Shown in pieces: positions 769 through 34,483 of a stretch of 45,397 nucleotides of DNA. This DNA is from Gemmatimonadales bacterium (GTDB lineage: Bacteria; Gemmatimonadota; Gemmatimonadetes; Gemmatimonadales; GWC2-71-9): the NCBI GenBank assembly GCA_035538175.1, contig DATLKW010000006.1, forward strand, positions 1-45,397, written 5' to 3'. The stretch's first letter is position 1. Every line of letters begins with the position of its first letter. The notes under the pieces are model-generated. The model did not search any database. It was not told the origin of the DNA and saw only the letters and a program-made list of their open reading frames with translations. The translations under genes and the position numbers were made by a program.

Positions 769-816
769 TAGCCCCTCCGGCGGCCACATTACCTGGAGCC
801 GACTGTGGAGGAGTTG

Positions 817-1137: not shown

Positions 1138-1189
1138 GGCGTCCCGGGCTGGGGCAGGGGGGAGGGGGGCCGCATATATTGGCCCACCT

Positions 1190-1570: not shown

Positions 1571-2243
1571 GGGCCTGCGGCACGCCTACGGGGCCGTAGT
1601 CGCGCTCGACGACGTGTCCTTCACCCTCGGCCCGGGGCACACGCTCGCCATCTTCGGGCCGAACGGGGCGGGGAAGACCACCCTCCTGCGGGTCCTCGCT
1701 GGCCTGGTCCGACCCAATGGCGGCTCCGCGCGCGTGGCGGGAGGCCGACACGCGATCGGCTGGATCGACCATCAGTCGCACCTGTACGGGGACTTGAGCG
1801 TGCGCGAGAACCTTGAGTTCTGGGCGACGCTCTACGGCGTCCCCCGAGCGGCGCGGGCCCCGCGCGCCACGGCCCTGGTCAAACGCCTGGGCCTGGCCGC
1901 CCGCGCCGACACGCCCGTGCGCACTCTGTCGCGCGGTCTGATGCAACGCGCGGCGATCGCCCGGGCGCTGATCCATGAGCCACCAGTGCTCCTCTTGGAC
2001 GAGCCCTTCACCGGACTCGACCTCGCGGCCGCGGCGGAGCTCCGGGCCCTGCTCGCCGAGCTGCGGGGCGCGGGGCGAGTCGTGGTCCTCACCACCCACA
2101 ACGTCGACGAGGGCGTCGAACTCGCCAGCGACGTGGCGTTTCAACACCGGGGACGCTTCGTGGCCTTCGGCCCGCGCGGCACCCGCAGCGCGGCCGAGAT
2201 CGCTGCGGCCTACCGCCAGGCGGTGCGGACCGACGATGCGTGA
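1557..2243 (+). CDS. ccmA: Heme exporter ABC ATPase CcmA
   Basis: It has Walker A GPNGAGKTTLLR, signature LSRGLMQR and Walker B VLLLDEP. The start overlaps the receiver gene by 14 nt. ccmB and ccmC follow directly. Confidence 0.8.
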   Translation: MVSAEGLRHAYGAVVALDDVSFTLGPGHTLAIFGPNGAGKTTLLRVLAGLVRPNGGSARVAGGRHAIGWIDHQSHLYGDLSVRENLEFWATLYGVPRAARAPRATALVKRLGLAARADTPVRTLSRGLMQRAAIARALIHEPPVLLLDEPFTGLDLAAAAELRALLAELRGAGRVVVLTTHNVDEGVELASDVAFQHRGRFVAFGPRGTRSAAEIAAAYRQAVRTDDA

Positions 2244-2916
2244 GACGCTCCGAGAGGCCTGGACGATCGCGCGCAAGGACCTGGTGCTCGAGTTCCGGAC
2301 GCGCACGGCCTTGCTGTCGGCCTTCGTGTTCACGGCCCTCGTGCTCACCGTGTTCTACTTCGGCCGCGATCCCACGGCGGTGGCGACCATCGATCTCGCG
2401 CCGAGCATCCTGTGGGTCACGTTCACGTTCGCGGCCATGCTCGCGTTGAACCGCGCCTTCCAGCTCGAGCTCGAGCATGGGGCGCTCGATGGGCTGCTCG
2501 TCTCGCCGCTCTCACGGCCGGGACTCTACCTCGGCAAGCTCGTGGCGAACCTGGCGTTCGTCGCCCTCATAGAAGCCGTGGGGCTGCCGCTCTTCGTGCT
2601 CTTTTTCGACGTGCCCGTGTGGCCGGTACTCCTGCCGCTCCTCGGCGTGATGGCGCTCGCCACCACGGGCTTCGTGGCCGTCGGCACCCTGTTCAGCGCC
2701 ATGGTGATCCGGATGCGCTTCGCCGAGCTGATGCTGCCGGTCCTGCTCCTGCCGTTTCTCTTTCCCCCGCTGCTCGGCGCCGTGCAGATTACGGCGCGCC
2801 TCTTCGGCGGGCGGCCCTTGAGCGAGGCGGGAGGTTGGCTTAGGTTGCTCGCCGCTTACGACATCCTGTTCGTGTCGCTCGCGACGCTCCTCTTTCGCCA
2901 CACGGTCGACGAATGA
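2236..2916 (+). CDS. ccmB: Heme exporter permease CcmB
   Basis: An in-frame ATG at 2236 lies inside track ORF 1975..2916 (MRETLREAWTIARKDLVLEFRTRTALLSAFVF...). There is an ATGCGTGA overlap with the ccmA stop. The protein is a polytopic membrane protein sitting between ccmA and ccmC. Confidence 0.8.
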   Translation: MRETLREAWTIARKDLVLEFRTRTALLSAFVFTALVLTVFYFGRDPTAVATIDLAPSILWVTFTFAAMLALNRAFQLELEHGALDGLLVSPLSRPGLYLGKLVANLAFVALIEAVGLPLFVLFFDVPVWPVLLPLLGVMALATTGFVAVGTLFSAMVIRMRFAELMLPVLLLPFLFPPLLGAVQITARLFGGRPLSEAGGWLRLLAAYDILFVSLATLLFRHTVDE

Positions 2917-3593
2917 CGCTCCTCGCGAAAGGCCGCGCCATCACGCTCCTGGGCCTGTGCGGTCTCGTGGGCGTGTACGTGCGCGCCCTGGCGTTCACCC
3001 CGGTGGAGCGCGTGCAGGGCCTGGCGCAGAAGATCTATTACCTGCATGTGCCGGCCGCGATCTGGGCTGAAACGGCGATGATCTTCGTGGGGCTCGCCGG
3101 GGCCTTCTATCTCTTCCTGAAGGACGAGCGCCTCGACCGCTTCGCGGCGTCGTCGGCGGAAGTGGGCACCGTCTTCGCCACCATCGTGCTCACGACGGGC
3201 CCCATCTGGGGCAAGCCGATCTGGGGCACGTGGTGGACGTGGGATGCGCGGCTCACGTCGACGCTGCTCCTCTTCTTCGTGTACGTCGGGTACTTGCTCC
3301 TGCGGGCGGCCGTGGTCGACCCCTTTCTGCGCAGCCGCTACGCCGCCGTGCTCGGCATCTGCGGGATGTTCCTCGTCCCCTTCATCCATTTCAGCGTCTA
3401 CCTGTTCCGCACGCTCCATCCCGGCCCCATCGTCCTGAAGCCGAGCGCGCCGTCGTTGCCGGCGCCGATGCTTGTGACGTGGGCGGTGTCCGTCGCCGTA
3501 TTCACGGTGCTCTATGTGGGATTCGTGACGCAGCGGTATGCGCTGGCCGTCCGCGGCGCGGCCCCCGAGCGCGGGGAGGCCGGCCCTGGCTGA
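2913..3593 (+). CDS. ccmC: Heme exporter / heme-handling protein CcmC
   Basis: It carries the Trp-rich heme-handling motif WGKPIWGTWWTWDARL (WGxxWxWD). There is an ATGA overlap with the ccmB stop. Confidence 0.9.
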   Translation: MTLLAKGRAITLLGLCGLVGVYVRALAFTPVERVQGLAQKIYYLHVPAAIWAETAMIFVGLAGAFYLFLKDERLDRFAASSAEVGTVFATIVLTTGPIWGKPIWGTWWTWDARLTSTLLLFFVYVGYLLLRAAVVDPFLRSRYAAVLGICGMFLVPFIHFSVYLFRTLHPGPIVLKPSAPSLPAPMLVTWAVSVAVFTVLYVGFVTQRYALAVRGAAPERGEAGPG

Positions 3594-3594
3594 C

Positions 3595-3696
3595 GTGCCC
3601 TCGACCGGCGGCTACATGGTCGCGGCCTACGTCGTGACGGCGGTCATCCTCGTCGCTTACGCCGTGGCGCTCTACCGGCGCGGGAACCGCCCCTAA
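3595..3696 (+). CDS. ccmD: Small single-TM protein, CcmD-like
   Basis: This ORF is not in the track (under 60 aa). It starts at GTG 3595 or ATG 3616 and stops at TAA 3694-3696. The product is VPSTGGYMVAAYVVTAVILVAYAVALYRRGNRP. One hydrophobic helix followed by basic residues, located directly after ccmC, is the usual CcmD layout. Confidence 0.5.
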   Translation: MPSTGGYMVAAYVVTAVILVAYAVALYRRGNRP

Positions 3697-4277
3697 CCGT
3701 CCCGTTTGTCGACGAACAACTCGGCGCGGGCGGCGGACAGGCGTTCCAGGCCGTTCGGGACTTGGGTGGCCCAGAGGTGCAGCGCTTCGTCCGCCGCGGT
3801 GATATCCCCCGCTTGGAACAGGGCCTGGGCGTTGCGCCGCAGGGCGTCGGCTCCGGCGCCCGCCGCGTAGGCGCGCGCGAACCGCGCGGCCGCCTCGGCG
3901 TGGCGGCCGGCGCGGCGATACAGGTCCCCCGCCGCGAGCGCGGCGTCGGGACGCTCCTCGAGGGTCAGCACCTGCTCGTAGGCGACGAGCGCGTCCTGCT
4001 GGCGGAACACCATCTGCCATGCCTCGCCGAGGAGCATCCAGGCGTCGGGGTTGGCGGGGAAGCGCACCGCGCCCTCCTGCGCCACCGCGACTGCCCCCCA
4101 GCGATCCTCGATCGCGCGCCGCAACCGCACCAGGGCGGGGTAGCACTCGGCGAACGCCGGGGTCACGACGCACCCGAGCCGCAGCCACCAGTCGGCGCGC
4201 TTCGGCGCCTCCCGCTGGCTGGCGGCGGCGCGACGCACGGTGAAGCGCACCAGCGCGGCGCGCAGGGATCGGAGCAT
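3693..4277 (-). CDS. TPR-like repeat protein (hypothetical)
   Basis: This is the C-terminal 194 codons of track ORF 3693..5087, starting at ATG 4277 (MLRSLRAALVRF...). Helical repeat pairs such as DAWMLLGEAWQMVFRQQDALVAYEQVL and AAGDLYRRAGRHAEAAARFARAY look like TPR. The upstream part of the track ORF is antisense to hemD. Confidence 0.5.
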   Translation of the reverse strand: MLRSLRAALVRFTVRRAAASQREAPKRADWWLRLGCVVTPAFAECYPALVRLRRAIEDRWGAVAVAQEGAVRFPANPDAWMLLGEAWQMVFRQQDALVAYEQVLTLEERPDAALAAGDLYRRAGRHAEAAARFARAYAAGAGADALRRNAQALFQAGDITAADEALHLWATQVPNGLERLSAARAELFVDKRDG

Positions 4278-4278
4278 G

Positions 4279-4297
4279 ATAGATTGCAACAATCTAT
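4279..4297. promoter_or_regulatory. Perfect 8-3-8 inverted repeat ATAGATTG-caa-CAATCTAT, filling the 18-bp gap between divergent start codons
   Basis: Read directly from the sequence. The flanking starts are ATG 4277 (minus, TPR) and ATG 4296 (plus, hemD). It is an AT-rich island in otherwise very GC-rich DNA. Each arm contains TAGATT, a -10-like hexamer. Confidence 0.5.
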
Positions 4298-5120
4298 GCG
4301 AGACCGTCCGCGATCGCCGCGCGCGACACGCGCGCTCTCGGGTCGGCGGATCGTCGTGACGCGTGCGCGCGATCAGGCGGGCGAGCTCATCCAGGCGCTC
4401 ACGGCCCTCGGCGCCGAGGTCGTCGCCGCGCCCACCATCCGCATCGTCCCCGTCGCCGACTTGCGCACCCTCCGGACCGCCCTCGCCGCGCCCACCCCGT
4501 ACGACTGGATCGTCTTCACGAGCCAGAACACGGTCGAGATCGTGTGCGCCCGGCTGGCCACGTGGGGACTCGCGCCAGCCGATGTCGCGCGCTCGGCGAT
4601 CGCCGCGATCGGGCCCGCGACGGCAGCGGCACTCGGGCGTCACGGGCTCGAGCCCGCACTGGTCCCCGAGCGCTTCGTGGCGGAGGCCGTCGTGACGGCC
4701 CTCGCCGCTCGGGGTCCGCTCGCAGGGACGCGCGTGCTCATCCCGCGGGCGCGCGAGGCCCGCGATGCGCTCCCCGATGGCCTGCGGACTCTGGGCGCCG
4801 TGGTCGACGTCGTGCCCGTCTACGAGACGGCCCGCGAACCGGGCGACGGCTCCGCGCTCGCGGCCGACATCCTCGCCGGGCGGATCGACGCCGTGTCGTT
4901 CACGTCGTCTTCCACGGTGCGCGGGTTCGTGGAGCTCGTGGGGCGGAGCGCGGCGGCCTCGGGCCGTTACGCGGCGGTGGTGATCGGCCCCGTCACGGCC
5001 CGCACGGCGCGCGCCCTGGGGATCGACGTGGCGGCCGAGGCGGCGGACTACACCGTGGGGGGGCTCGTCACCGCGCTCGTGCGCCACTTCGCCGCAGGGG
5101 GCGGGCAGAGCCCCCCGTGA
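4296..5120 (+). CDS. hemD: Uroporphyrinogen-III synthase
   Basis: An in-frame ATG 4296 lies within track ORF 3762..5120. The blocks [42 protein letters not shown] and [13 protein letters not shown] fit the two-lobed HEM4 pattern. The stop overlaps the hemC start (GTGA). Confidence 0.8.
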
Positions 5121-6049
5121 CGGCGTTCACGCTCGGCACCCGCGGGAGCGAACTCGCGTTGCGGCAGGCCGAATGGGTGCGGAACGCGCTCGGGGAGCGC
5201 GGGGTCACCGCCGAGCTCGTGATCATCCGGACGGGTGGCGACGCCGCCGTCGACCGCCCCCTCTACGAGCTCGAAGGCAAGGGGTTCTTCACGAAGGAGC
5301 TCGAAGATGCCCTCTTGGCCGGCACGATCGACGCCGCTGTCCATTCGCTGAAGGATCTCCCGACGACGCTGCCCGAGGGCTTGGCGCTTGCCGCGGTGCC
5401 CCGGCGCGCCCAGCCGACGGAGGTGCTCGTGAGCCGGGACGCGGGGGTCACGTCGCTCGCGGGGCTTCGCGCGGGCGCCACGATCGGCACCTCGAGCCTG
5501 AGGCGCGCGGCGCAGATCCGCTATCTCCGGCCCGATCTCCACGTCGTCGCGTTGCGCGGCAACGTCCCGACGCGCCTCGGCAAGGTCGCCCGGGGCACGG
5601 ACGGCCTCGACGCCGCGCTCGTCGCCGGCGCGGGGCTCGAGCGCCTCGGCCTCGAGGGCCGGATCGCCGCCCGGCTCGATCCCCTGCTCGTGATGCCGGC
5701 CCCGGGCCAGGGGGCCCTCGGGCTCGAAGTCCGGGGCGACGACGCGCGCGCGCGTGGCACGCTCGCGCCCCTCGACGACCCGGCGAGCGCTCGGGACGTG
5801 ACGGCGGAGCGCAGCCTCCTGGCGGCGCTCGAAGGGGGGTGCCAGGCCCCGGTCGCCGCCTACTGCGCCGCGGGCGCCGAGCTCGGGACCGAGGGGCCGC
5901 ATCGGCTGTTCGGGCGCGTGACCGCCCAGGACGGCGCGGTCCAGATTACCGCGTCCGCCCCCCTCGACGAGCGAGCGCCCGCCGCGGCGGGGGTCCGCGT
6001 GGCGAGCTTGCTCCGGGCGGCGGGGGCGTCGAGATTGCTCGGCCGATGA
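5117..6049 (+). CDS. hemC: Porphobilinogen deaminase (hydroxymethylbilane synthase)
   Basis: GTG 5117 is in frame with track ORF 4544..6049. Matching blocks are [41 protein letters not shown] and the cofactor-cysteine context [12 protein letters not shown]. Confidence 0.9.
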
Positions 6050-7017
6050 GCCAGTTCCCGTTGCGCCGCATGCGCCGCCTGCGCCGTACCCCCGCCCTGC
6101 GTCGCCTGGTGCAGGAAACCCACCTCGCCCCGGCCCAGCTCGTGTGGCCGCTCTTCGCGTGCCACGGCCGCGGCGTCCGCCAGGAGGTCGGCCTCCTCCC
6201 AGGCGTCTACCAGACGTCCGTCGATGAGCTCGTCAAGGACGCGGAACGCGCGCACCGCCTCGGCCTGGGTGGGATCATTCTCTTCGGCCTCCCGGCCGCC
6301 AAGGACGCGACGGGCTCGGAAGCGTACGACGAACAGGGCATCGTGCAGGAAGCGGCGCGCGCCGTGAAGCGCGCCGTGCCCGAGCTCCTCGTGATGGGTG
6401 ACGTGTGCCTCTGCGAGTATACCGACCACGGCCATTGCGGCGTGCTCCGCGACGGCGACGTGGACAACGACGCCTCCGTGTACCTGCTCGGGAAGGTCGC
6501 GGTCACGCAGGCGCGGGCCGGGATCGACATCGTGGCGCCGAGCGACATGATGGACGGCCGGGTCGCGGGGATCCGCAAGGCACTCGACGCCGCGGGCTTC
6601 TCGCACGTCCCGATTCTGTCCTATGCCGCGAAGACCGCGTCCGCCTTCTACGGGCCGTTTCGTGAAGCGGCGGGCTCCACGCCCCAGTTCGGGGATCGCC
6701 AGTCGTATCAGATGCAGGGCACGAACGGCGACGAGGCGATGCGGGAAATCGGGCTCGACTTGGCCGAAGGGGCCGACATCGTCCTGGTGAAGCCCGCGCT
6801 GCCCTGCCTCGACCTCATCCGCCGGGCGAAGCAGCAGTTCGGCGCGCCGCTCGCCGCCTATCAGGTGAGCGGCGAGTACGCGATGATCAAAGCCGCCGCG
6901 GCGCGCGGGATGGTGGACGAGGCGCGCGCCATGTGGGAGACGCTCTACGCGATCCGGCGGGCCGGCGCGGACATTATCCTTAGCTACTTCGCGCCGCAGG
7001 TCGCCGAGCAGCTCTAA
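6046..7017 (+). CDS. hemB: Porphobilinogen synthase (delta-aminolevulinate dehydratase), zinc type
   Basis: ATG 6046 overlaps the hemC stop (ATGA). The product begins [25 protein letters not shown] and contains the Cys-rich metal site [14 protein letters not shown], plus [18 protein letters not shown] and YQVSGEYAM. Confidence 0.9.
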
Positions 7018-7035
7018 AGGGCGAGCGCGGCGTCC

Positions 7036-7719
7036 TTACGATCGCGGCAGCAGCACCGCCTTCCACAGCGCCCCCGCTACCCCCGCACCGACCAGCGGGC
7101 CGATCCAATACACCGCGTGGGCGTCCCACTGGCCGGCCACGAGCGCGGGACCGAAGGCGCGGGCCGGGTTCATCACGGCGCCCGTGAAGCTTCCGCCCAC
7201 GAGCGCATCGACGAAGATCGCGAGGCCGATCCCGAAGCCGCCGATGCGGGGCGCCTCGGACGACACGGCCGTGCCGAACACGGCGCTCACGAGGAAGAAG
7301 GTGAGCGCGGCCTCGATCCACACGCCCTGCATGAACGTGACGTCGCCGCCGAGCCGCGGCGTGCCCACGAGCGCGAGTCCCACGGCCGCTCGGGGCAAGA
7401 GGGCCTTCACGAGGCCCGCTCCGCCGACGGCGCCCGCCAGCTGGGCGGCGACATACGCCCAGGCGCGACGCCCGTCGATCCGATTCGCGATCCAGGCGCC
7501 GAAGGTCACCGCCGGGTTCATATGGCCACCGGAAATGCTCATCGTCATCGAGACGATGATCGCCATCGCCACGCCGTGGGCGAACGCCACGCCGAGGGGA
7601 CCGATGCTCGCGGGGGTCGTGCCCGCGGCGACCACCGCGACCACGCTGCCCGCGCCCAAGAACACGAAGAGGAGCGTCCCGACGAACTCGGCCGTGAGGG
7701 GCCGCAGCTGGGTGGACAT
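7036..7719 (-). CDS. aqpZ: MIP-family channel (aquaporin Z-like)
   Basis: ATG 7719 lies inside track ORF 7036..7905. Two NPA boxes are present: SGGHMNPAVTFG and GAVMNPARAFGP. Confidence 0.85.
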   Translation of the reverse strand: MSTQLRPLTAEFVGTLLFVFLGAGSVVAVVAAGTTPASIGPLGVAFAHGVAMAIIVSMTMSISGGHMNPAVTFGAWIANRIDGRRAWAYVAAQLAGAVGGAGLVKALLPRAAVGLALVGTPRLGGDVTFMQGVWIEAALTFFLVSAVFGTAVSSEAPRIGGFGIGLAIFVDALVGGSFTGAVMNPARAFGPALVAGQWDAHAVYWIGPLVGAGVAGALWKAVLLPRS

Positions 7720-7775
7720 GAGAGGCCCTCGAAGGTGTAGGGAGATGTGCCGACGCGGAGAATTTGGGGGCCGGG

Positions 7776-9023
7776 CTAGGCCCGCCGCAATACGAGCGTG
7801 GCGTTGATCCCGCCGAAGCCGAACGAGTTCGTGACCACGACGTCCGGCGCCGCCGCGCGGCCCTGCTGCGGGAGGCAGTCGAGATCGCACGCGGGATCGG
7901 GGCACTCGAGGTTGAGGGTCGGCGGGAGCCAGCGCCGGTCCATCGCGAGCGCGCAGATCGCCGCCTCGATGGCGCCGCTCGCGCCGAGCGCGTGCCCATA
8001 GTAGCCCTTGGTGCCGCTCACGCTCAGGCGGTAGGCGTGGTCGCCGAACACCTGCTTGATGGCGACGGTCTCGGTCGCGTCGTTGAGTGGCGTCGAGGAG
8101 CCGTGGGCATTGATGTAGCCGACCTCGGTCGGCGCGACGCGCGCGTCGCGGAGCGCCAGGTCCATCGCCCGCGCGGCCTCGCGGCCGTCAGGGCGGGGGG
8201 CCGTCATGTGATACGCGTCGTTCGTGACGGCATAGCCGACGAGCTCGGCGTAAATCTTCGCGCCGCGGGCCACGGCGCGCGCCCGCTCTTCGAGCACGAG
8301 CACGGCCGCGCCCTCCCCCATCACGAAGCCATCCCGCCCTTCGTCGAACGGCCGCGAGGCGTGCGCCGGGTCGTCGTTGCGCGTGCTCATCGCGCGGATC
8401 ACGTTGAACGCCGCGTAGGTCATGGGCGCGAGCGGCGCTTCAGCGCCGCCCGCCAACATTACGTCGGCGTGGCCCCCGCGAATTGCGCGGAACGCCTCCC
8501 CCACGGCGATGGTCCCTGAGGCGCAGCTCATCGCGTTGGTCGAGTTCGGACCCGTGCAGCCGAATTCGATCGCGAGGTTGCAGCTCGCGGCGCCCGGGAA
8601 GACGGCGAGCGCCAGCGCGGGGTCGAGCCCCCGCGGGCCGTCGGCGCGGAAGCCTTCCACCTGCGCCTCCGCGAACGCCACACCGCCCAACGCGGAGCCC
8701 ATCATCGCGCCGACGCGCTCCAGCCGCTCGCGCGCCGGGTCGAGGCGCGCATCCGCGAGCGCGAACCGAGCGCTCGTGACCGCGAGCTGGGAAAAGCGAT
8801 CGAGCCGCCGCGCCCGCTTCGCCTCCAGGTGGTCGAGCGGCCGGAAGTCGGGGATCTCGGCGGCGATCTTCGAGCGGAACGGCGTCGGATCGAAACGGGT
8901 GAGCTCACGTACGGCGGACGACCGGGCCGTCAGCCCGGCCCACACGCCGTCCGCGCCTGTGCCGATGGGCGTGACGGCGCCGACCCCCGTGATCACCACC
9001 CGCCGCTCGGGTGCGCTCCTCAC
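7776..9023 (-). CDS. Beta-ketoacyl-ACP synthase, KAS I/II (FabF-like) family
   Basis: GTG 9023 ([21 protein letters not shown]) overlaps the upstream stop (GTGA). The Cys-His-His triad contexts are [23 protein letters not shown] and [12 protein letters not shown]. The C-terminus reads [14 protein letters not shown]. Confidence 0.85.
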
Positions 9024-9511
9024 GAACCCTCGAGCGCGCGTCGGAGCCCCGCGAGCGTGCGGGACGCAATCCCGTGGATGAACACGGGCCCGATCACGAA
9101 CCGCGCCGCAAGCCCGCCGACGAGCGGCCAGGCGGGTCCCCGCCACTCGTGCACCACCGTCACCACGACGCCGCCTGGCCCGCCTGGCCCGCCTGGCCCG
9201 GCCGGGCCCGCCGGCGCAGCGGCGAGCTGCCACACCACGTCCATCCCGGCCGTGAGGCCGCGGACGTGCCGATAGCGGATCTCCCCGGCGCGCCGATCGA
9301 CGCGCATCTCCGAGACCCACCACACGGGGTAGGCGAGCGGGCCGAAGGGGCGGCGCGCGGCCATCTCGACCGTGCCCCCCCCGTCGCGCCGCTCGAGAAA
9401 CCGCACCCAGCGGTAGTGCGACAGAATCCGCGGCCAGCGCTCGACGTCGGCCGCGAGCGCGAAAACGCGATCGAGGCTCGCGTGGATCTCAGCACGGTCG
9501 ACGGTGCGCAT
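9020..9511 (-). CDS. SRPBCC (START / polyketide cyclase-dehydrase-like) ligand-binding protein
   Basis: ATG 9511 gives MRTVDRAEIHASLDRVFALAADVERWPRILSHYRWVRFLE..., the typical N-terminal beta-alpha signature of Polyketide_cyc2/SRPBCC proteins. It contains an inserted Gly/Pro loop encoded by a 9-bp tandem repeat. Confidence 0.6.
   Translation of the reverse strand: MRTVDRAEIHASLDRVFALAADVERWPRILSHYRWVRFLERRDGGGTVEMAARRPFGPLAYPVWWVSEMRVDRRAGEIRYRHVRGLTAGMDVVWQLAAAPAGPAGPGGPGGPGGVVVTVVHEWRGPAWPLVGGLAARFVIGPVFIHGIASRTLAGLRRALEGS
9172..9207. repeat. 9-bp tandem repeat GCCTGGCCC x3 plus one degenerate copy
   Basis: The perfect copies are at 9172-9180, 9181-9189 and 9190-9198, followed by GGCCGGGCC. 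On the minus strand this encodes ...[15 protein letters not shown]... inside the SRPBCC CDS. Confidence 0.9.
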
Positions 9512-9522
9512 CGCGCCGCACG

Positions 9523-10251
9523 TCAGGGGCAGCGCCCAGGCCCGCGGTCTCGAGCCGCCGGCGCCCAGGCCGCCACGATGCGGAACCCCGGCCGGTAGCG
9601 GGCCACCGCCCGCACTCCCGCCTCGGTGAGCATCCGATTGAACTCCTCCCGCGTGTAGCCGCGTTTGAGCGAGACGACGGCGTCGTGGCGCGTCGAGCGG
9701 CTCATCCCTAACGAGAGACAGGCGACCCACGCGCCCGCCATGGCGGCGCGCGAACGGTGCAGGTCGGCGAGCACGACGGCGCGCCGGGCCAGCGCGTCGC
9801 ACGCCGCGATCCAGCGCAGCGCCTCGGGGCGCGGCAGATGGTGCAGCACCTGGCTCACCACGACGACGTCCACCGCGCGGGCCCCGAGCGGGGGTGCGCC
9901 GCCGTCGGCGAGGATGGCCGCGAGGGGACGATCGCCTGCGCCTCGGGCGAGCCGCGCGGCCGCGCGATGCCGCTCGATGGCGATGAGCCGGAGCGCGAGA
10001 CCGTGCCGGGCCGCCGCCCGCGCCAGCGCTCGCGGAATGTCTCCGAGCCCCGTCCCCACGTCCAGCAGGGTCCATGTCCGGGTCTCGTCGGCGGCCGCGC
10101 TGCGGCGCCAGGCGACGAAGAAGGGTTCGAGCGCCCGCAGGACCGCGCGGGTTCCGCCGAAGAGGGCGTTCAGGCGGGCGATGTCCCGGAGCTCCCGCTC
10201 GACCGCCCCAGGGTCGGCGCGCGGGTCGTCGAGCAGCTCGACCCCGATCAT
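9523..10251 (-). CDS. Class I SAM-dependent methyltransferase
   Basis: ATG 10251 overlaps the upstream stop (ATGA). SAM motif I is LLDVGTGLGDIP and the post-I acidic residue lies in LIAIERH. VVVSQVLHHLP is typical of Methyltransf_12/23-like proteins. Confidence 0.75.
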   Translation of the reverse strand: MIGVELLDDPRADPGAVERELRDIARLNALFGGTRAVLRALEPFFVAWRRSAAADETRTWTLLDVGTGLGDIPRALARAAARHGLALRLIAIERHRAAARLARGAGDRPLAAILADGGAPPLGARAVDVVVVSQVLHHLPRPEALRWIAACDALARRAVVLADLHRSRAAMAGAWVACLSLGMSRSTRHDAVVSLKRGYTREEFNRMLTEAGVRAVARYRPGFRIVAAWAPAARDRGPGRCP

Positions 10252-10733
10252 CGGCTGCCCTCGAGGCCCGCGTACCCGCCCCGGTAATACACCAGCGGCC
10301 GGCCATCCGAGACGCTGCCTCCCGTGACGAGGCCAAAGAACACCGTATGGTCGCCCCCCGGGGCCTCGCCCTGTTTGTCGCACTCGATCGTCGCCACCGT
10401 CCGCTCGAGCACCGGCAGGCCGTACCGACTCTCGCGGTAGCCGATACCGTCGAACCGGTTGGGGTGCTCCGCGGCGAAGCGGCGCGACAGGGCCTCCTGG
10501 TCCGAGGCGAGCACGTTGAGCACGAACCGCGGCGCCGCCTGCAAGGCCGGGTGCATGTCGTTCGTCCGGGCGACGCATACGAGCACGAGTGGTGGCTCGA
10601 GGGAGACCGAAGCCACGGAGCTCGCCGTCATGCCGACCGGTCGCCCGGCGGGGTCGCGGGTCGTCACGACCGTCACGCCAGTCGCGAAGCGGCCGAGCAG
10701 CTGACGAAACAGGTCGGGATAGACGCCGGGCAT
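10248..10733 (-). CDS. Flavin reductase-domain protein (NAD(P)H:flavin oxidoreductase, HpaC-like)
   Basis: ATG 10733. The blocks FRQLLGRFATGVTVVTTRDPAGRPVGMTASSVASVSLEPPLVLVCV, RFVLNVLASDQEALSRRFA and GDHTVFFGLV fit the classical Flavin_Reduct pattern. Confidence 0.8.
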   Translation of the reverse strand: MPGVYPDLFRQLLGRFATGVTVVTTRDPAGRPVGMTASSVASVSLEPPLVLVCVARTNDMHPALQAAPRFVLNVLASDQEALSRRFAAEHPNRFDGIGYRESRYGLPVLERTVATIECDKQGEAPGGDHTVFFGLVTGGSVSDGRPLVYYRGGYAGLEGSR

Positions 10734-10735
10734 GG

Positions 10736-11941
10736 TCACCAGAGGAGACGGGCGAGCACCGCCGGGGCGAAGACGCGGCGCGCCGGGACGATGTTCCCGG
10801 CGGCGCTCACGAGAAGATCGGCGAGCGCCGGACGGCGCGCCAGGCGACGGACCACGCGGTTCGTGAGCGCGGGCCACCCGACGCCGAGGCCGATGAGGCG
10901 CTCGAAGAGCCATTTGCCGCGGAACGTGCGGCGCCGCGCTCGCCCGTAGGCGCGGAGCGCGGCGCCCGGGACGGGACCGGCGCGCTGCGCGAGCACGGGC
11001 GCGAGCGTCTCGGCCACGAGCTCCGCGCCCCGCAACGCGGCGTAGATCCCCTGCCCGGTGAACGGGTCAAAGAAGTCCGCGGCGTCCCCGACGAGGAGCG
11101 CGCCCGGCACGGCGGCGACCCGCGACCACTGCGCGAACGGCCCCGTCACAAGCACCTCGCGCACCAGCCGGCGCGACGCGAACCGACCGGCGAGTCCGGG
11201 AAACCGCTCGAGCTCGGCGAAGAACGTCCGGCGATAGTCTTGCCCACTCGCGCGCACAAGCCCGAGCGGCAGGACGAGCGCCACCGTCGTGACGCCGCCG
11301 CCCACGGGGCCGAGGCCGACGTACCCCCGCGCGCTCACGTGCAGCTCCCCGACGCCGTCGACCCCGGCGACGTCGCTTACGTGCGCGCTAAACGCGAGAC
11401 GCTCGGGCGCCGAGACCCGAACGAGCCCCAGGCGACGCGCCACCACGGAGCGCAAGCCATCAGCCGCCACGACGACCCGGCTGCGGTAGGTCTCGCGCGG
11501 TCCCGTGCGCGACCGCCCCACGACTCCCGCGACCCGCCCGCGCTCGAAGACGAGGTCCTCGACGCTGAGCCCCTCGCGCACCTCGACGCCGGCTCGGGCG
11601 GCCGCGGCCACGAGCACGGTGTCGAAGGTCGCGCGCGGCAGCGCGAAGCTCGAGGCCGGAGACCCCGCGGTGAACCGCCCGCACATCGCCGTCCCGTCTG
11701 GGGCGACCACCTTCATGCCGGAGAGCTCGGCGTGGGCCGCCGCCGCCACGGCGTCGAGCACCCCCGCGCCGAGGCGCCGCAGCAGGTGGGTCGTTCCGGG
11801 GCTCAAGTACTCCGAGCAGGGTTTGTCGCGCGGAAATCGGGCGCGGTCGAGCAGCAGCACCTCTGCGCCCGCCTGCGCGAGCCGCAGGGCGGTCGCCGCC
11901 CCCGCCGGACCCGCCCCCACGACCACCGCGTCCCAGGTCAC
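10736..11941 (-). CDS. FAD-dependent oxidoreductase, geranylgeranyl reductase family
   Basis: GTG 11941 (VTWDAVVVGAGPAGAATALRLAQAGAEVLLLDRARFPRDKPCSEYLSPG) shows the dinucleotide fold GxGxxG plus the K.C.E.LSP block typical of GGR-type enzymes. VVAADGLRSVV and LVGDAADFFDPFTGQGI are also present. Confidence 0.7.
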   Translation of the reverse strand: MTWDAVVVGAGPAGAATALRLAQAGAEVLLLDRARFPRDKPCSEYLSPGTTHLLRRLGAGVLDAVAAAAHAELSGMKVVAPDGTAMCGRFTAGSPASSFALPRATFDTVLVAAAARAGVEVREGLSVEDLVFERGRVAGVVGRSRTGPRETYRSRVVVAADGLRSVVARRLGLVRVSAPERLAFSAHVSDVAGVDGVGELHVSARGYVGLGPVGGGVTTVALVLPLGLVRASGQDYRRTFFAELERFPGLAGRFASRRLVREVLVTGPFAQWSRVAAVPGALLVGDAADFFDPFTGQGIYAALRGAELVAETLAPVLAQRAGPVPGAALRAYGRARRRTFRGKWLFERLIGLGVGWPALTNRVVRRLARRPALADLLVSAAGNIVPARRVFAPAVLARLLW

Positions 11942-11954
11942 CGGCCGAGGGGCG

Positions 11955-12641
11955 CTATCCGAGCGCGAGCCGCGTGGCTGCGAGCGCCACGGCGGCGCCA
12001 CACACCGTGGCGGCGAAGTTGACGCCATCGTTGTCGAGCCATTGCCGCCCCGCCACGAGCCGGACCGGCTCGTGGCACACCGTCCGGGCGCGCTCGAAGC
12101 GCGCGTCGCACGCAGGACACGCGTACTTGCCTTGCAGCGTCGCGCCGAGCAGGGAGTCGAGGACCATCCCCGCCACCCCCGCCCCGGCGCCGATCGCGAG
12201 CCCCGGGGCGGGTCCCGGAGCGGCCACCGCATGGGCCAGCCCGGCGATCGCGACCGCGCCCGCCACCCCACCGAGCGTCCCGAGCGCCGTCACCCCGCCT
12301 GAGGTACCGCGTGCTACGCGGCGGCCGTTCGTGATGAGTCGCGGGGAGAAGGGCGAGAACGCCCCGATCTCGGTCGCCCAGGTGTCCGCCGCGGCAGCGG
12401 CGAGAGCGCCCGCCGCGGCGGGCCAGGAGCCCAGGAGCGCCGCCGCGGCGGCGATGCCGCCGTTCGCGACGACTTGACGCGCCGTGCGCCGCGGGCCTCG
12501 GCGCTCGGCGAGCTGACTGAGCAGACTGCCGGAGAGAAAGAACGCCCCGAGCACCGTGAGCCCCCGCCATCCGAGCCCCCACACGGTGGTCCCACCGACG
12601 ACCGCGGCCGCGACCACGCCGCCGCGGCTGAGCCAATTCAC
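11955..12641 (-). CDS. DUF92 / TMEM19-family integral membrane protein
   Basis: GTG 12641 overlaps the anti-sigma stop (GTGA). The protein is polytopic and Gly/Ala-rich, with AADTWATEIG, GTSGGVTALGTLGG, a Cys cluster CPACD...CHEP and NDGVNFAAT near the C-terminus. From memory these are hallmark blocks of the TIGR00297/DUF92 family. Confidence 0.6.
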   Translation of the reverse strand: MNWLSRGGVVAAAVVGGTTVWGLGWRGLTVLGAFFLSGSLLSQLAERRGPRRTARQVVANGGIAAAAALLGSWPAAAGALAAAAADTWATEIGAFSPFSPRLITNGRRVARGTSGGVTALGTLGGVAGAVAIAGLAHAVAAPGPAPGLAIGAGAGVAGMVLDSLLGATLQGKYACPACDARFERARTVCHEPVRLVAGRQWLDNDGVNFAATVCGAAVALAATRLALG

Positions 12642-12862
12642 TCGTCGATTAGCTCGTCGAGGATGCGGCGCTTCAGCTCCGGAGGCGCGCCGCGACCGCG
12701 GCAGCGCATCTTCACGAACGTGAGAAAGACCTTCTCGAAATCGAAGTGCTCGCCACAGGGCGGACAGTCGGTGAGATGATGCCGGATTTCTTCCTCTACC
12801 TCCGGCGTGAGCTCGCGGTCGAGGTACTCATAGAGGTGCTCCATGCACTCGCGGCAATTCAT
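12638..12862 (-). CDS. rsrA: RsrA-type soluble zinc-binding anti-sigma factor (ZAS, HxxxCxxC)
   Basis: The product is MNCRECMEHLYEYLDRELTPEVEEEIRHHLTDCPPCGEHFDFEKVFLTFVKMRCRGRGAPPELKRRILDEL. It is colinear with actinobacterial RsrA (C..LYE.LD.E....HH...C.PC...E..VK.LV.RCC...P..L). It has no TM segment. The ATGA overlaps the sigma gene stop. Confidence 0.85.
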   Translation of the reverse strand: MNCRECMEHLYEYLDRELTPEVEEEIRHHLTDCPPCGEHFDFEKVFLTFVKMRCRGRGAPPELKRRILDELIDE

Positions 12863-13530
12863 TTCGCGTTCCCCTTGATGTACCCCATGCCCACGGCGTA
12901 CTGGTACAAGCGCTGCTGCAACAGCCGCCGCGCGCGGAACAGGCGCGACTTCACCGTGCCGACAGGGACCTCCTGCACGCGAGCGATCTCCTCGTACGAC
13001 ATCCCCTCTACGTCGCTCAACACCACCGTCTCCCGGAATTGTTCCGGGAGCTCATCGATCGCGCGGAGCACTTCGTCGTCCACGATGCGGTCGAAGAAAG
13101 TGCCCTGCGGATCGTCATCCTGGACTTCGTCAAAGACGGAGAAGGGTTCGATCGCATCGATGTCGACCGTCTCGGGATGCCGCGTGCGCCGACGGTATTC
13201 ATTAATGAACGTGTGGCGCAGAATCGTGAGCAGCTAACCCTTGGCGTTCGTCCCCCGTTCGAACTGATGCCAGGCGCGGTACGCCTTGAGCATCGTCTCC
13301 TGTACCAGGTCGTCGGCCTCGGCGGGGTTGCCGGTCAGCCGCAGCGCGACCCGATACAGACTGTCCAGGTGCACCAGCGCTTCGCGCTCGAAGCTCGCCC
13401 GCTTGTCCTTGTCGGCCTCGGCGGACGGGGTCGACGTGGACGGAGGTGGGGGCGCCGGGGGCGCCGGAGGGACCGGGGGGGCCGGGGGGGCCGGGCGGGC
13501 CGGGGGGCCGGGGGGTAGAGTACCGCTCAT
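12859..13530 (-). pseudogene. sigR: SigR/SigH-type ECF sigma-70 factor interrupted by one in-frame TAG (13234-13236)
   Basis: Track ORFs 13234..13782 (region 2: [25 protein letters not shown]) and 12859..13083 (region 4: VPVGTVKSRLFRARRLL) are in the same frame. My own translation across the gap reads ...GTNAKG*LLTILRHTFINEYRRRTRHPETV... The TAG sits where SigR/SigH proteins have the W of KAWLYRILTN. The likely start is ATG 13530 ([10 protein letters not shown]...). Confidence 0.8.
13441..13516. repeat. Imperfect G/C-only short repeats (GGGGCGCCGG / GGGGGCCGGG units)
   Basis: Read directly from the sequence. On the minus strand this encodes the Pro-rich N-terminal extension [25 protein letters not shown] of the sigma factor. 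Confidence 0.7.
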
Positions 13531-13540
13531 AACGCTCCGT

Positions 13541-13566
13541 AACCTCTCCCGGTGCGGCCGGGTTCC
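13541..13566 (-). promoter_or_regulatory. Candidate ECF (SigR-type) autoregulatory promoter GGAAC-N18-GTT
   Basis: The minus strand reads GGAAC CCGGCCGCACCGGGAGAG GTT, followed by 10 nt and then ATG 13530. From memory, the SigR/SigH consensus is GGAAT-N18-GTT. Confidence 0.45.
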
Positions 13567-13582
13567 GCAATAGGGTGGCGGC

Positions 13583-14206
13583 GTGTACGTTTCGCGCGCC
13601 GTGGTCCATAGCATCGTGCCGCTCGCGGTCCTCGAGGCGGTCAAGAACCTCGACACGCCGGTCGAGGACGGTCTGTCGGAGTTCGCCGAGGAGCTGTTGT
13701 CGAAGCGACTCGGGCTATCCGAGACGGTGGCGATGCAACTGCGGGAATACGAAGCCATGGCGCGGCGCAATGCCGCCGCCAATGAGGGGCACGTCGAAGC
13801 CCTGCTACGGCTCGTGGGACGGCGGCCCGATGCCGACCTCGTGTTCGCCGACGCGGGGCGCCGCGCGGCCCGACGGGCGGTGCGCCGCCTCTTCGGCCTG
13901 ACGCGGCTCGCCGCGAAGGGCGCTCCCCGACTGTTCGGCTACGCCGCCGCGCGCCGCGCGGCCCGCGCCGTCTTGGGCGCCGATTTGAAGCGCGAGCAGC
14001 ACATCCCCGTCGCCTGGGTGCGGGACGCGCTGGCGGTGCACGCGACGCCCGACGGGTCCGCCTGCGCCCTCTACGGCACGGGCTTGAGCGAGCTGCTCCG
14101 CCTGCTCGTCGGCTTCGAGGGCGCCATGCTCCACGTCTCCTGCCGCGCGCGCGGCGGGACGGTGTGCGAGTGGCGGGCCGCCCCGCCCGATCCCCGACAC
14201 CACTGA
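13583..14206 (+). CDS. Hypothetical protein with a V4R-like C-terminal domain
   Basis: Track ORF (GTG start). The C-terminus [39 protein letters not shown] resembles the C-x4-G...E/H-x2-C-x2-G-x3-C-x-F/W pattern of V4R small-molecule-binding domains. Confidence 0.45.
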
Positions 14207-15396
14207 TGGCCCTGCTCGAGGGCTTCGATTTTCCCGCGCTCGCCGACGCCTTGGGCGCGCTCGGGGCGGACGGCTGGCTCCTCTACGACTTCCGGAAGGT
14301 GAACCCCATCGCCGAGCGGATCCTCGGCCCGACCGGGATGGGTACGCGACGCCTGTTCGTGCTGCTCCCGCGCAGCGGTCGCCCGGTCGCCATCGCCCAC
14401 CGGATCGAGCTCCAGCCGCTTGCCGACTTCCCGGGCGATGTGCGCCCCTACGGGGCGTGGGGCGAGCTCCACGCCCACCTCAGAGGGCTCGTGCGTGGCC
14501 GCACGCTCGCCCTCGAGATCTCCCCGCTCGATCAAGTCCCCTACCTCGATCGCGTGCCTCACGGCGTGGTCCAGCTCCTCGAATCGTTCGGGGCGCAGCT
14601 CGTGTCGTCGGCCCCTCTTGTGTCGCGGTTCGCGGCGCGCTGGTCCGAGCAGGAACGGGCGGGGCACCGCGCGGCCGCTGAAGCCCTCGCCAGCGTCGCT
14701 CGGGAGGCACTCGCATGGGTGGGGGGCGAGGCCGCCCGCGGAACCGAAGTCCGCGAGACGACCGTGCAGCGACGCGTGCGGGAGGCGATCGAGCGCGCGG
14801 GGCTCTGGACCAGCGACGGGCCGATCGTCGCGTTCGGGCCGACGACCGCGATGCCGCACTACGAGCCCCATCCCGGCACCGACCGCCGGCTCGCGTCGGG
14901 CGACGTCGTGCTCCTCGATTTGTGGGCCGGACCCGGACCGGGCTCAGTGTTCGCGGATCAGACGTGGATGGCGTTCGCCGGGCGCGCCCCCGACGCCGAG
15001 GTGCGGCGCGTGTGGGACACCGTGAAAGCGGCGCGTGACGCGGCGGTCGCCCTCGTGCGACGGGGCACTGGGGGCGCGGGCGGCGCCCCGCCGCTCACCG
15101 GCGCCGCAGTCGACGACGCGGCCCGAAGCGTTATCCGCCAGGCCGGGCTCGGCGACTACTTCGTCCATCGCACCGGGCACTCGATCGACCGCGATCTCCA
15201 CGGCTCCGGCCCCCACATCGACAACTTCGAGACCGAGGACACCCGACCCCTGGTCCCCGGTGTGGGCTTCTCCGTCGAGCCGGGTGTTTACCTCCCCGGC
15301 CGCTTCGGGATGCGGAGCGAGATCAACGTCTACATCGGCGCGGCGGGACCCGAGGTGAGCCCGCGCGAGCCGCAGGACGCGCTGCTCCTGCTGTGA
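14206..15396 (+). CDS. M24-family metallopeptidase (Xaa-Pro aminopeptidase/creatinase-like)
   Basis: ATG 14206 is in frame with track ORF 14164..15396. Metal-ligand contexts are VVLLDLW (Asp), FVHRTGHSIDRDLHG (His), GFSVEPGVY (Glu) and MRSEINV (Glu). Confidence 0.8.
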   Translation: MALLEGFDFPALADALGALGADGWLLYDFRKVNPIAERILGPTGMGTRRLFVLLPRSGRPVAIAHRIELQPLADFPGDVRPYGAWGELHAHLRGLVRGRTLALEISPLDQVPYLDRVPHGVVQLLESFGAQLVSSAPLVSRFAARWSEQERAGHRAAAEALASVAREALAWVGGEAARGTEVRETTVQRRVREAIERAGLWTSDGPIVAFGPTTAMPHYEPHPGTDRRLASGDVVLLDLWAGPGPGSVFADQTWMAFAGRAPDAEVRRVWDTVKAARDAAVALVRRGTGGAGGAPPLTGAAVDDAARSVIRQAGLGDYFVHRTGHSIDRDLHGSGPHIDNFETEDTRPLVPGVGFSVEPGVYLPGRFGMRSEINVYIGAAGPEVSPREPQDALLLL

Positions 15397-15412: not shown

Positions 15413-16276
15413 TCACAACGCCGCGACGACGAGCCCGCCCCACACCGCCGCCCCGAGCGCCACGTGCGCGGCCGCGAGCGGCCGGGGGAGCTGCAACAGC
15501 ACCATCGCCGCGGCCAGGGTCACCTGGGCGCCCACGAGGCCCACCACCCCCCACACGGCGCGTCGCTTCGCGCGCACAGCCCACCAGATCACGAAGGCGA
15601 AGAGCGCATAGGCGAGCACCCGGTGGGTCCAGTGAATGTGCTGGAGCGCGTTGCCGCTCGGGACGAGCTGCCCATTGCAGAGGGGGAACCCGAGACAGGC
15701 GCTCGCCGCCCCGGTGTTGGCGGTGAGCGCGCCGGCTAGAACGGTTGCGAATCCCAGCACCAGGGCCACGAGCCCCGTGGGGCCGGGGTCCCTCAGCCAC
15801 CCCTCACTTCGCTCGCGCGCCACGACGAGCAGCGTCGCCAGCAGCAGCATGGCGGTCGCGAAATGCAGGACCACCGTCCACGGCGGGAGGCGCAGCCTGA
15901 CCGTGACGGCACCGAGCAGCACCAGGACGACGAGGAGGCCGAGCGCCGCGTAGGGCAGGGCCGACGGCAGCCCGGGGGCGGCGGGATCGCGGGAGGCGTT
16001 GGCGCCGACGGACGCTCTTCTGTGCCTGCCCCGCAAGCGCCCGGCGTAGACCGCGAGCGCGAGTACGAGTCCCGATACCGCGGCCGCCACCAGCCGATGC
16101 GCGTACTCAATGAGCGTCGGGACATCGAGCGGCGGCAGGAGTCGGCCATTGCACAAGGGCCAATGCTCGCCGCACCCGAGCCCCGAGCCGGTAATACGCA
16201 CGATCGCCCCGAGGACGATGAGGAGATAGGTGAACGTCACCGCGGTCCAAGCGAGCGGCGTGAAGCGTCGCGTCAT
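15413..16276 (-). CDS. ctaA: Heme A synthase (COX15/CtaA family)
   Basis: Matching blocks are LLIVLGAIVRITGSGLGCGEHWPLCNG..LIEYAHRL, and a second half with SACLGFPLCNGQLVP...HIHWTHRVLAY. This gives the duplicated Cys-pair plus His motif of CtaA. Confidence 0.85.
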   Translation of the reverse strand: MTRRFTPLAWTAVTFTYLLIVLGAIVRITGSGLGCGEHWPLCNGRLLPPLDVPTLIEYAHRLVAAAVSGLVLALAVYAGRLRGRHRRASVGANASRDPAAPGLPSALPYAALGLLVVLVLLGAVTVRLRLPPWTVVLHFATAMLLLATLLVVARERSEGWLRDPGPTGLVALVLGFATVLAGALTANTGAASACLGFPLCNGQLVPSGNALQHIHWTHRVLAYALFAFVIWWAVRAKRRAVWGVVGLVGAQVTLAAAMVLLQLPRPLAAAHVALGAAVWGGLVVAAL

Positions 16277-34379: not shown

Positions 34380-34483
34380 CCAAATCCCCCCGCCGAAGGG
34401 TTGAAGGACTAAACGCACACGATCGCGAGACGGGCACGCAGCGGTCTGCCGCGTCAGAGTGGTGAAGAGGCACCCCGGCGCCG

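Follow-up and report, generated by a model that had tools for sequence, protein, structure and literature searches.

The stretch of DNA analyzed here, referred to as the window, comprises 45,397 nucleotides from a Gemmatimonadales bacterium (contig DATLKW010000006.1) with about 70% G+C, and its named close homologues are all from Gemmatimonadota, chiefly metagenome-assembled genomes of Gemmatimonadales. Its minus strand carries a compact block of genes for an extracytoplasmic function (ECF) sigma factor, a zinc-associated anti-sigma factor (ZAS), a membrane protein of the DUF92 family, an oxidoreductase binding flavin adenine dinucleotide (FAD), a flavin reductase, a methyltransferase (MT), an SRPBCC protein and a FabF-like ketosynthase (KS). 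We propose that this block is an operon for a phenolic lipid resembling hierridin or the polyketide quinones that is placed under a SigR/RsrA-type switch, and that the KS and the cyclase-like SRPBCC protein replace the type III polyketide synthase (PKS) found in such pathways elsewhere; we would give this reading an even chance. A wider claim is put forward with more reserve, and we would rate it somewhat below even: that the KS and the SRPBCC protein form a new, type III PKS-independent route to alkylresorcinols, in which HidC, the alkylresorcinol synthase of the hierridin cluster, has been replaced in at least four phyla (Gemmatimonadota, Chloroflexota, Eremiobacterota and Armatimonadota), and that in one Gemmatimonadales lineage this route has become the dedicated output of a thiol switch, yielding a membrane hydroquinone or quinone inducible by oxidative stress.

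The block consists of eight co-directional open reading frames (ORFs) between 7776 and 13530 on the minus strand, with a G+C content at third codon positions (GC3) of 0.80-0.92, and it is packed exactly as a preliminary description of this DNA had stated for all seven junctions. The sigma and ZAS genes overlap by 4 nt (ATGA, 12859/12862), as do the ZAS and DUF92 genes (GTGA, 12638/12641); 13 nt separate DUF92 from the FAD gene and 2 nt the FAD gene from the flavin reductase gene, which in turn overlaps the MT gene by 4 nt (ATGA, 10248/10251); and the SRPBCC gene follows after 11 nt and overlaps the KS gene by 4 nt (GTGA, 9020/9023). The upper boundary of the block had been set at 13566, where the sequence reads GGA and offers no start codon, and we move it to the first ATG at 13530. 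Likewise, the unit of eight genes stands, but a ninth conserved member had been missed, a gene for a channel of the major intrinsic protein (MIP) family (7036-7719, minus strand). No credible internal sigma-70 promoter or terminator was found in a scan of 6500-14500. Family calls were made with Pfam and NCBIfam profile searches judged against the curated cutoffs, and every family assigned earlier was backed by these searches.

The tailoring pair and its partners

The genes that connect the block to known chemistry are those for the MT (9523-10251, minus strand), a class I enzyme dependent on S-adenosylmethionine (SAM) that we place in the HidA/Mtr family, and for the FAD oxidoreductase (10736-11941, minus strand), which we place in the HidB/Fdo family within the superfamily of geranylgeranyl reductases (GGRs) and halogenases. 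In the hidABC hierridin cluster of picocyanobacteria, HidC is accompanied by the proposed hydroxylase HidB and by HidA, and recombinant HidA methylates 5-pentadecylresorcinol in vitro (PMC6836626). The succession of type III PKS, MT and FAD genes is one of two gene orders reported for cyanobacterial hierridin-like (hid) clusters (PMC8086630). In planctomycetes, an mtr-fdo-t3pks operon accompanies 58 of 96 type III PKS genes, and those type III PKSs of Planctomycetota that were tested make C15/C17 alkylresorcinols (PMC10896814).

Our link to these systems was made through Mtr and Fdo of Gimesia maris, which were read as three-frame translations of synthetic genes in the supplement of PMC10896814 that had been damaged by optical character recognition (OCR). 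Searched with profile hidden Markov models of the two window families, Mtr scores 52 and 51 bits in two frames and Fdo 57 and 43 bits (Z=1e6). The Mtr matches span the family motifs ELxDxP, NDLxRSR and DGPL(S)..AFT..E, and the Fdo matches span FPRxKxC, GYVGL and GDAAxxxxP.

The MT itself is recognized by the Methyltransf_11/25 profiles, and its match to PRK06202 (134 bits) lies below the cutoff of 243; a sequence search of the PDB gave no match for it, and an exact-sequence look-up gave no record. At E<1e-10, 1121 representatives of its family are found in a library clustered at 50%, and the window protein is 27-44% identical to type III PKS-linked and other distant members, with invariant residues in common. 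The two kinds of partner are exemplified by the locus L011, with a type III PKS-MT-FAD_binding_3 neighbourhood, and by L009, where the order is FabF-like KS-MT-FAD_binding_3. A degenerate DNA motif, designed by hand to capture the MT signature RHD[GA]..S..[RK][AG][FY]T..E, retrieved at least 120 loci in a genome scan; these were searched by tblastn with the proteins of the window, L011 and L009, and context was obtained for the 119 loci listed.

At least 35 of these loci, from Gemmatimonadota, have the arrangement of the window, (ZAS-)DUF92-FAD-flavin reductase-MT-SRPBCC-KS(-MIP), with the genes in brackets present in part of them. MT-FAD-SRPBCC-KS is found in at least 23 loci from Chloroflexota, Eremiobacterota, Armatimonadota, Longimicrobiales and others. 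A type III PKS stands beside the MT, mostly together with the FAD gene, in at least 16 loci from Methylomirabilota/Rokubacteria, Actinomycetota, Chloroflexota, Acidobacteriota, Bacteroidota, Elusimicrobiota and others (both genes adjoin the MT homologue in L011, L030, L031, L089, L102 and others), while KS-MT-FAD occurs in at least four loci plus L009, from Acidobacteriota. The MT alone or MT-FAD is seen in at least 41 loci, mostly from Acidobacteriota, on pieces of up to 8 kb. A type III PKS and a KS occur together in none of the 119 loci listed: among these matches, the type III PKS and the KS, with or without the SRPBCC gene, are mutually exclusive partners of the MT-FAD pair. The preliminary description had stated that no characterized pathway was known with this gene set. 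This holds only in part: for the set as a whole we found no description, but the MT-FAD pair is known from hidABC and mtr-fdo-t3pks.

The FAD oxidoreductase (FAD_binding_3, 104 bits) has its best NCBIfam match in the GGR model TIGR02032 with 148.5 bits, below the cutoff of 158.8, and its nearest PDB structures by sequence are flavin-dependent halogenases and an archaeal GGR. The type III PKS-linked FAD protein of L011 matches TIGR02032 with 143.5 bits, followed by QhpG, MenJ and CmlS, a pattern that agrees with that of the window protein. Because the two proteins score alike, the GGR label points to a superfamily resemblance common to HidB-type enzymes, on which it can mislead functional inference. 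The motifs FPRxKxC, GYxG and GDAAxFxDP are common to the window protein, to type III PKS-linked proteins and to G. maris Fdo, and Lys-x-Cys (here Lys-Pro-Cys, within fPR.K.C.eylsp) is kept across the entire FAD family. GGRs have an active-site cysteine in a K-x-C-G-G region and a YxWxFP motif; at the site of the latter, the window protein reads GYVGLGP. The earlier assignment of this flavoprotein to the GGR family is supported at the superfamily level only. Flavin-dependent halogenases for their part have the motif WxWxIP. A halogenase identity, to which the top PDB matches and the adjacent flavin reductase gene might have pointed, was rejected, since GYVGLGP stands where the best PDB match, the halogenase 8zop, has GWLWYIP and the Trp residues are missing.

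The flavin reductase (10248-10733, minus strand) is a protein of the HpaC/HsaB/FerA type, with 153 bits to PF01613 and matches below cutoff to the NCBIfam models for HsaB and FerA. Instead of the flavin reductase gene, a ferredoxin gene stands beside the FAD gene in Eremiobacterota and L009. The presence of one or the other next to the FAD gene suggests that the flavoprotein depends on an external source of reductant.

Other genes accompany the pair in some of these clusters. In Eremiobacterota (L023, 225-473 and 3996-7275; L035; L083), a ferredoxin gene precedes the MT-FAD-SRPBCC-KS core, and genes for an ABC ATPase and a large MacB/FtsX-like permease follow it; in L009, the ferredoxin gene (6322-6582) lies upstream of KS-MT-FAD. 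From these neighbours, one may suspect that the flavoprotein receives its electrons from a separate donor and that the product is exported. Gemmatimonadaceae carry an extra gene for a B12-binding radical SAM protein between the DUF92 and FAD genes (L074, 2398-3915; L097, 3533-4963; L106, 4557-6176), whose best match is TIGR04072, a "lipid biosynthesis B12-binding/radical SAM protein" model, with 305 bits and below the cutoff of 360.

Proposed ring assembly and competing readings

A type III PKS gene (Chal_sti_synt-type) was found neither among the cluster genes nor among the scanned flanking ORFs, and in its place the block ends with the SRPBCC and KS genes. The KS (7776-9023, minus strand) has both ketoacyl-synt domains, N and C, and an intact Cys-His-His triad, as described earlier (C167, H272 and H307). 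It reaches 516 bits with TIGR03150 (fabF), above the equivalog cutoff of 494, and its top PDB match is FabF of Bacillus subtilis with 425 bits, as compared to 330 bits for the actinorhodin KS. Among close relatives, it shows 81-90% identity, more than any other biosynthetic gene of the block. The KSs of the Gemmatimonadota-type and MT-FAD-SRPBCC-KS clusters have a mean identity of 60% across phyla and are 44-47% identical to B. subtilis FabF, the one reference FabF compared (about 47% for the window KS), whereas the KS-only type of Acidobacteriota forms a separate KS group, about 41% identical to the others. The existence of a cross-phylum KS group suggests, as far as a comparison with one reference FabF allows, a dedicated KS that travels with the cluster.

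The SRPBCC protein (9020-9511, minus strand) matches Polyketide_cyc with 38 bits. When a profile built from 30 sequences of this family was searched against the PDB, eight structures matched below E=1e-8, and all of them are aromatase/cyclases of type II PKSs; BexL was found at 8.5e-17, WhiE at 2e-12 and TcmN at 1.5e-9, with ZhuI at 4e-7. The invariant residues W26, Y33, W65, M90 and W94 of the family align to W28, Y35, W65, M91 and W95 of TcmN. Furthermore, the SRPBCC ORF either overlaps or directly adjoins the KS ORF in several phyla. The window version contains a Gly/Pro-rich, low-complexity insertion of 16 residues (9150-9200) that is absent from its homologues.

From these family relationships, the following course of events can be envisaged. 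Oxidation of the Cys/His zinc site of the ZAS would release the sigma factor, and the whole block would then be transcribed from a promoter of the form GGAAC-N18-GTT. The FabF-like KS would extend a fatty acyl-acyl carrier protein (ACP) with malonyl-ACP units without reduction, and the SRPBCC protein, translationally coupled to the KS, would fold and cyclize the poly-beta-keto end to a resorcinol-type ring, a task that elsewhere falls to HidC. The HidB-family flavoprotein, fed by the flavin reductase, may then hydroxylate the ring, and the HidA-family MT may methylate it, such that an alkyl-methoxy-(hydro)quinone or phenol would result in the membrane. The suggestion in the preliminary description of a redox-induced lipophilic antioxidant is compatible with the data.

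Several points weigh against this proposal. The building of an aromatic ring by a FabF-type KS together with this SRPBCC protein lacks experimental precedent, and the KS, which exceeds the housekeeping fabF cutoff and whose gene is better conserved than any other biosynthetic gene of the block, might do no more than elongate fatty acids. Genes for an ACP, a chain-length factor, a thioesterase or an acyl-activating enzyme were found neither in the cluster nor in its scanned flanks, and a scan of window ORFs likewise turned up neither acpP nor fab genes. Tyr35 and Arg69 of TcmN are reportedly important pocket residues; Arg69 aligns to Met or Gln in the SRPBCC family (Met69 in the window) and Arg82 to an invariant His. 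The SRPBCC protein is thus cyclase-like, but non-canonical, as it matches the aromatase/cyclase profile while both arginines are replaced. Co-expression of mtr and fdo of G. maris added one methyl group only (PMC10896814), and a hydroxylase role for HidB/Fdo is itself unproven. Five sigma-linked loci (L173, L191, L214, L235 and L243) show a clean deletion of the MT gene, with the flavin reductase gene abutting the SRPBCC gene, which argues that methylation is dispensable in one sub-lineage. DUF92 and MIP are conserved, yet have no step in the proposed pathway, and the sigma gene of the window is truncated by an in-frame TAG. Finally, the TIGR04072-like gene of the sigma-less Gemmatimonadaceae clusters could point to aliphatic chemistry.

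This last point leads to the strongest alternative, namely that the operon tailors an aliphatic chain: the KS would be an ordinary KAS II, the MT and the GGR-like flavoprotein would methylate and reduce the acyl chain, modelled on the methylenation-then-reduction routes to mid-chain methyl fatty acids, and the SRPBCC protein would serve as a lipid carrier. The FabF character of the KS, the GGR-like Lys-x-Cys of the FAD family and its dependence on an external reductant in the form of flavin reductase or ferredoxin, the "lipid biosynthesis" radical SAM gene inside the Gemmatimonadaceae version and the lack of conservation at the Arg69 position would all sit well with it. However, the MT and FAD families are partners of type III PKSs in many phyla, including proven alkylresorcinol synthases of Planctomycetota and cyanobacteria, and the KS and type III PKS exclude each other among the matches listed. 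In addition, the SRPBCC profile matches aromatase/cyclases, and not the lipid-transfer START proteins. We regard aliphatic tailoring as unlikely.

Less probable still, in our view, is an isoprenoid product, in which the GGR-type reductase would saturate a prenyl chain, a VTE6-like DUF92 protein would phosphorylate the prenyl phosphate, and the chain would be joined to an acyl or polyketide head group. DUF92 (11955-12641, minus strand) is a polytopic membrane protein with 178 bits to PF01940 and 95 bits to TIGR00297, below the cutoff of 206, and, as stated in the preliminary description, the plant phytyl-phosphate kinase VTE6 belongs to this family (COG1836; PMC9782597). The best NCBIfam match of the flavoprotein and the archaeal GGR among its top PDB matches also speak for this idea. 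However, the TIGR02032 match is below cutoff and about equaled by the type III PKS-linked homologue, and the GGR site reads GYVGLGP. Moreover, neither the window nor the related loci contain a gene for a prenyl diphosphate synthase or a UbiA-type prenyltransferase. In the genome survey, DUF92 was found in the Gemmatimonadota versions only, among the matches listed, and at least five other phyla have the cluster without it. A literature search pairing DUF92 with geranylgeranyl reductase returned nothing relevant. The isoprenoid or saturated-prenyl reading of the preliminary description, which rests on the GGR label, is therefore not supported.

Little probability is also left for a composite of unrelated genes packed by genome compaction (a housekeeping FabF, a water/glycerol channel, a DUF92 protein that goes with the anti-sigma factor, and a small MT-FAD-flavin reductase module acting on a substrate made elsewhere): the very high conservation of the KS, the pairing of ZAS and DUF92 in Gemmatimonadaceae even without a sigma gene and the presence of MT-FAD alone in at least 23 acidobacterial loci (pieces of 8 kb) would suit it, but SRPBCC-KS stays with MT-FAD in Chloroflexota, Eremiobacterota, Armatimonadota and Gemmatimonadota, fusion proteins join flavin reductase to MT (Flavin_Reduct+MT, P0187) and MT to SRPBCC (MT+Polyketide_cyc, P0167 and P0317), and behind the sigma gene the genes of the whole block keep one and the same order.

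The proposed redox switch and the surroundings of the operon

Upstream of the sigma ATG lies the motif GGAAC-N18-GTT (13541-13566), which forms part of a conserved TTGC-GGAAC-N18-GTT element (13541-13570, minus strand). In the related loci L003-L006, the blocks TTGCGGAAC and GGTTACGG are invariant, whereas the 18-nt spacer between them is variable. The window contains three copies of the promoter motif where 3.25 are expected, hence no excess over chance, and the copy at 13541-13566 is the sole one that precedes a gene start; the others lie inside the sigma gene and at 91-116. As the GTT is only 10 nt before the ATG, the sigma transcript would be nearly leaderless. The consensus of SigR/SigH promoters is GGAAT-N18-GTT, and the sigma promoter is apparently of the autoregulatory type expected for such a factor.

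Conservation of this coupling was assessed in 120 metagenome loci that were retrieved via a sigma motif alone, such that the genes following it played no part in their selection; the denominators below are the loci with enough sequence. TTGC-G[GA]AAC-N17-19-[GC]TT is found in 85 of 98 loci with enough upstream DNA, and 81 of these 85 have an 18-nt spacer, in 47 distinct sequences. Downstream of the sigma gene, ZAS is present in 104/104 loci, DUF92 in 83/83, the FAD gene in 56/56, the flavin reductase gene in 49/49, the MT in 36/41, the SRPBCC gene in 34/34, the KS in 25/25 and MIP in 19/22. The block order never varies behind the sigma gene, and the synteny that the preliminary description had looked to in other genomes extends to the full gene order in those sigma-linked loci with enough downstream DNA. 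In Gemmatimonadaceae, ZAS-DUF92 precede the biosynthetic block as well, but there is no adjacent sigma gene and no GGAAC-N18-GTT promoter, and it follows that the sigma coupling is specific to the lineage of the window.

The sigma factor (12859-13530, minus strand) matches Sigma70_r2 with 76 bits and Sigma70_r4_2 with 66 bits, and its best NCBIfam match is TIGR02947 (SigH_actino) with 173 bits, below the cutoff of 251.55. The preliminary description had overlooked a TAG in frame at 13234-13236, codon 99 of 223 (GTNAKG*LLTILRH). Outside this codon, the protein is 85-87% identical to intact homologues, of which all four complete aligned ones have a Trp at this position. The scan pattern used on the metagenomes was degenerate and permitted TGG and TAG alike, and TGG was found in 121 of 121 sigma-motif matches (in the 120 loci). 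Recoding of TAG does not offer an explanation, because the DUF92 and KS genes of the window themselves end in TAG. A copy of the region from the same strain was sought in metagenome contigs, where no exact 32-mer match was found. The change from TGG to TAG is either a fresh inactivation of the switch or an assembly error. The N-terminus of the sigma factor (13440-13520) has a longer PPxPP tail than its homologues, and the Gly/Pro-rich insertions in this protein and in the SRPBCC protein look like expansions by slippage in GC-rich DNA.

The ZAS (12638-12862, minus strand; 74 aa) matches zf-HC2 with 42 bits and the antisig_RsrA model TIGR03988 with 73 bits, above the cutoff of 62.5. Its candidate zinc ligands are H29-x3-C33-x2-C36 (HxxxCxxC) together with the N-terminal C3/C6, which by sequence is the ligand layout of RsrA and RshA. 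The view of sigma and ZAS as a SigR/RsrA-type pair, proposed earlier, is thus upheld by a score above the RsrA equivalog cutoff. The DUF92 proteins also contain cysteines: an insert of the form CxxC-x8-10-(H)xC(H) is present in 25 of 25 Gemmatimonadota proteins (the window and 24 related loci, L001-L006, L010, L025 and others), and reads CxxC-x10-CH in the window. This insert resembles a small zinc ribbon or a thiol site, which is striking beside a zinc/thiol anti-sigma factor. The MIP channel, of the aquaporin/glycerol-facilitator type (PF00230, 187 bits), is encoded 56 nt downstream of the KS gene on the same strand, and follows the KS gene also in L001-L006 and L010.

On the other side of the sigma promoter, a divergent gene of 207 aa without a Pfam match (13583-14206, plus strand) shares an intergenic region of about 50 nt with it; in L097, the homologous protein weakly resembles BchJ/V4R (28 bits, below cutoff). 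A gene for an M24 peptidase (14164-15396) comes next, and this pair of genes adjoins the operon both in L003-L006 and in the sigma-less loci of Gemmatimonadaceae. Haem-related genes flank the operon (window 1-7017 and 15413-16276), with acs, genes for a STAS protein and a response regulator, ccmB, ccmC and convergent hemD-hemC-hemB on one flank and ctaA (haem A synthase) on the other, an arrangement that is kept in L001-L006. Farther away, two large ORFs with high GC3 and without a Pfam match (18159-20189, minus strand, 676 aa; 23384-25030, plus strand, 548 aa) lie among glycosyltransferase and MurJ genes, and a large ORF with strong coding GC3 (31086-34523, minus strand, 1145 aa) comes just before an LptF/LptG gene. 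Neither an Rfam nor a tRNA match was obtained in the window.

Relation to known systems

What is already known is the tailoring pair and the type of pathway, from hid and mtr-fdo-t3pks and, by analogy, from the actinobacterial srs and pkq clusters. In the literature, as far as our incomplete coverage goes, we found no description of a KS and an SRPBCC protein replacing the type III PKS, nor of the Gemmatimonadota additions (flavin reductase, DUF92 and MIP) or of a 1:1 coupling to a SigR/RsrA-type switch. Such clusters have probably been overlooked by annotation based on type III PKSs, because their enzymes are labelled "FabF" and "SRPBCC family protein". If our proposal is true, bacteria would have, besides the type III PKS and DarAB routes, a third enzymatic way of forming the resorcinol ring of their phenolic lipids. 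Gemmatimonadota, Chloroflexota and Eremiobacterota, three poorly cultured groups often met in soil metagenomes, commonly carry such clusters, and the lipids of these hosts are of interest with respect to stress tolerance and as possible biomarkers.

A comparison with type II PKSs (TcmN, WhiE, ZhuI and BexL) reveals a common ground in a KS of the FabF/KAS II fold combined with an SRPBCC protein that matches the aromatase/cyclase profile and keeps the equivalents of Trp28, Tyr35, Trp65, Met91 and Trp95 of TcmN. In contrast to these systems, the window has a single KS, and a KS-beta/chain-length factor and a dedicated ACP were not found among the scanned ORFs. Furthermore, its KS is nearer to FabF than to the actinorhodin KS, and the equivalents of Arg69 and Arg82 are Met/Gln and His, respectively.

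With regard to its regulation, the block resembles SigR-RsrA of Streptomyces and SigH-RshA of Mycobacterium in that an ECF sigma gene overlaps a small ZAS gene whose product has HxxxCxxC and an N-terminal Cys, in the GGAAC-N18-GTT promoter, and in a ZAS score above the RsrA cutoff. It differs from them in its host, a member of the Gemmatimonadota, and in its sigma factor, which is below the SigH_actino cutoff and interrupted by TAG; mycothiol is known as a thiol of actinobacteria. The one target visibly linked to the pair is the lipid operon, and not thioredoxin or other thiol-homeostasis genes. Outside the Actinobacteria, an RsrA-type sensor coupled 1:1 to a lipid pathway would tie thiol-oxidative stress to redox lipids of the membrane in a directly testable way.

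The closest relatives are hidABC and mtr-fdo-t3pks, with which the block has in common adjacent genes of the HidA/Mtr and HidB/Fdo families, a link made via the OCR-damaged G. maris sequences, and a pathway logic in which a long-chain phenolic lipid is first synthesized and then tailored. There, ring formation falls to a type III PKS, whereas the window has the FabF-like KS and the aromatase/cyclase-like SRPBCC protein instead and adds flavin reductase, DUF92, MIP and the ECF sigma/ZAS switch.

The srsABC and pkqABC clusters of actinobacteria, which lead from an alkylresorcinol to an alkyl-benzoquinone, likewise combine a ring synthase, a methyltransferase and oxidoreductase or hydroxylase steps (PMC9927152, PMC6669644). 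They differ in that a type III PKS makes the ring and in that SrsB is a membrane methyltransferase of the ICMT family and not a class I enzyme. SrsB was for this reason rejected as a homologue of the window MT, and because it is of the ICMT type, srs and pkq are to be seen on the methyltransferase side as functional analogues and not as family members. Under stress or dormancy, the redox-active lipid that they produce plays a physiological role (PMC9927152, PMC6669644), in keeping with the proposed control of the window operon by a redox-responsive sigma factor.

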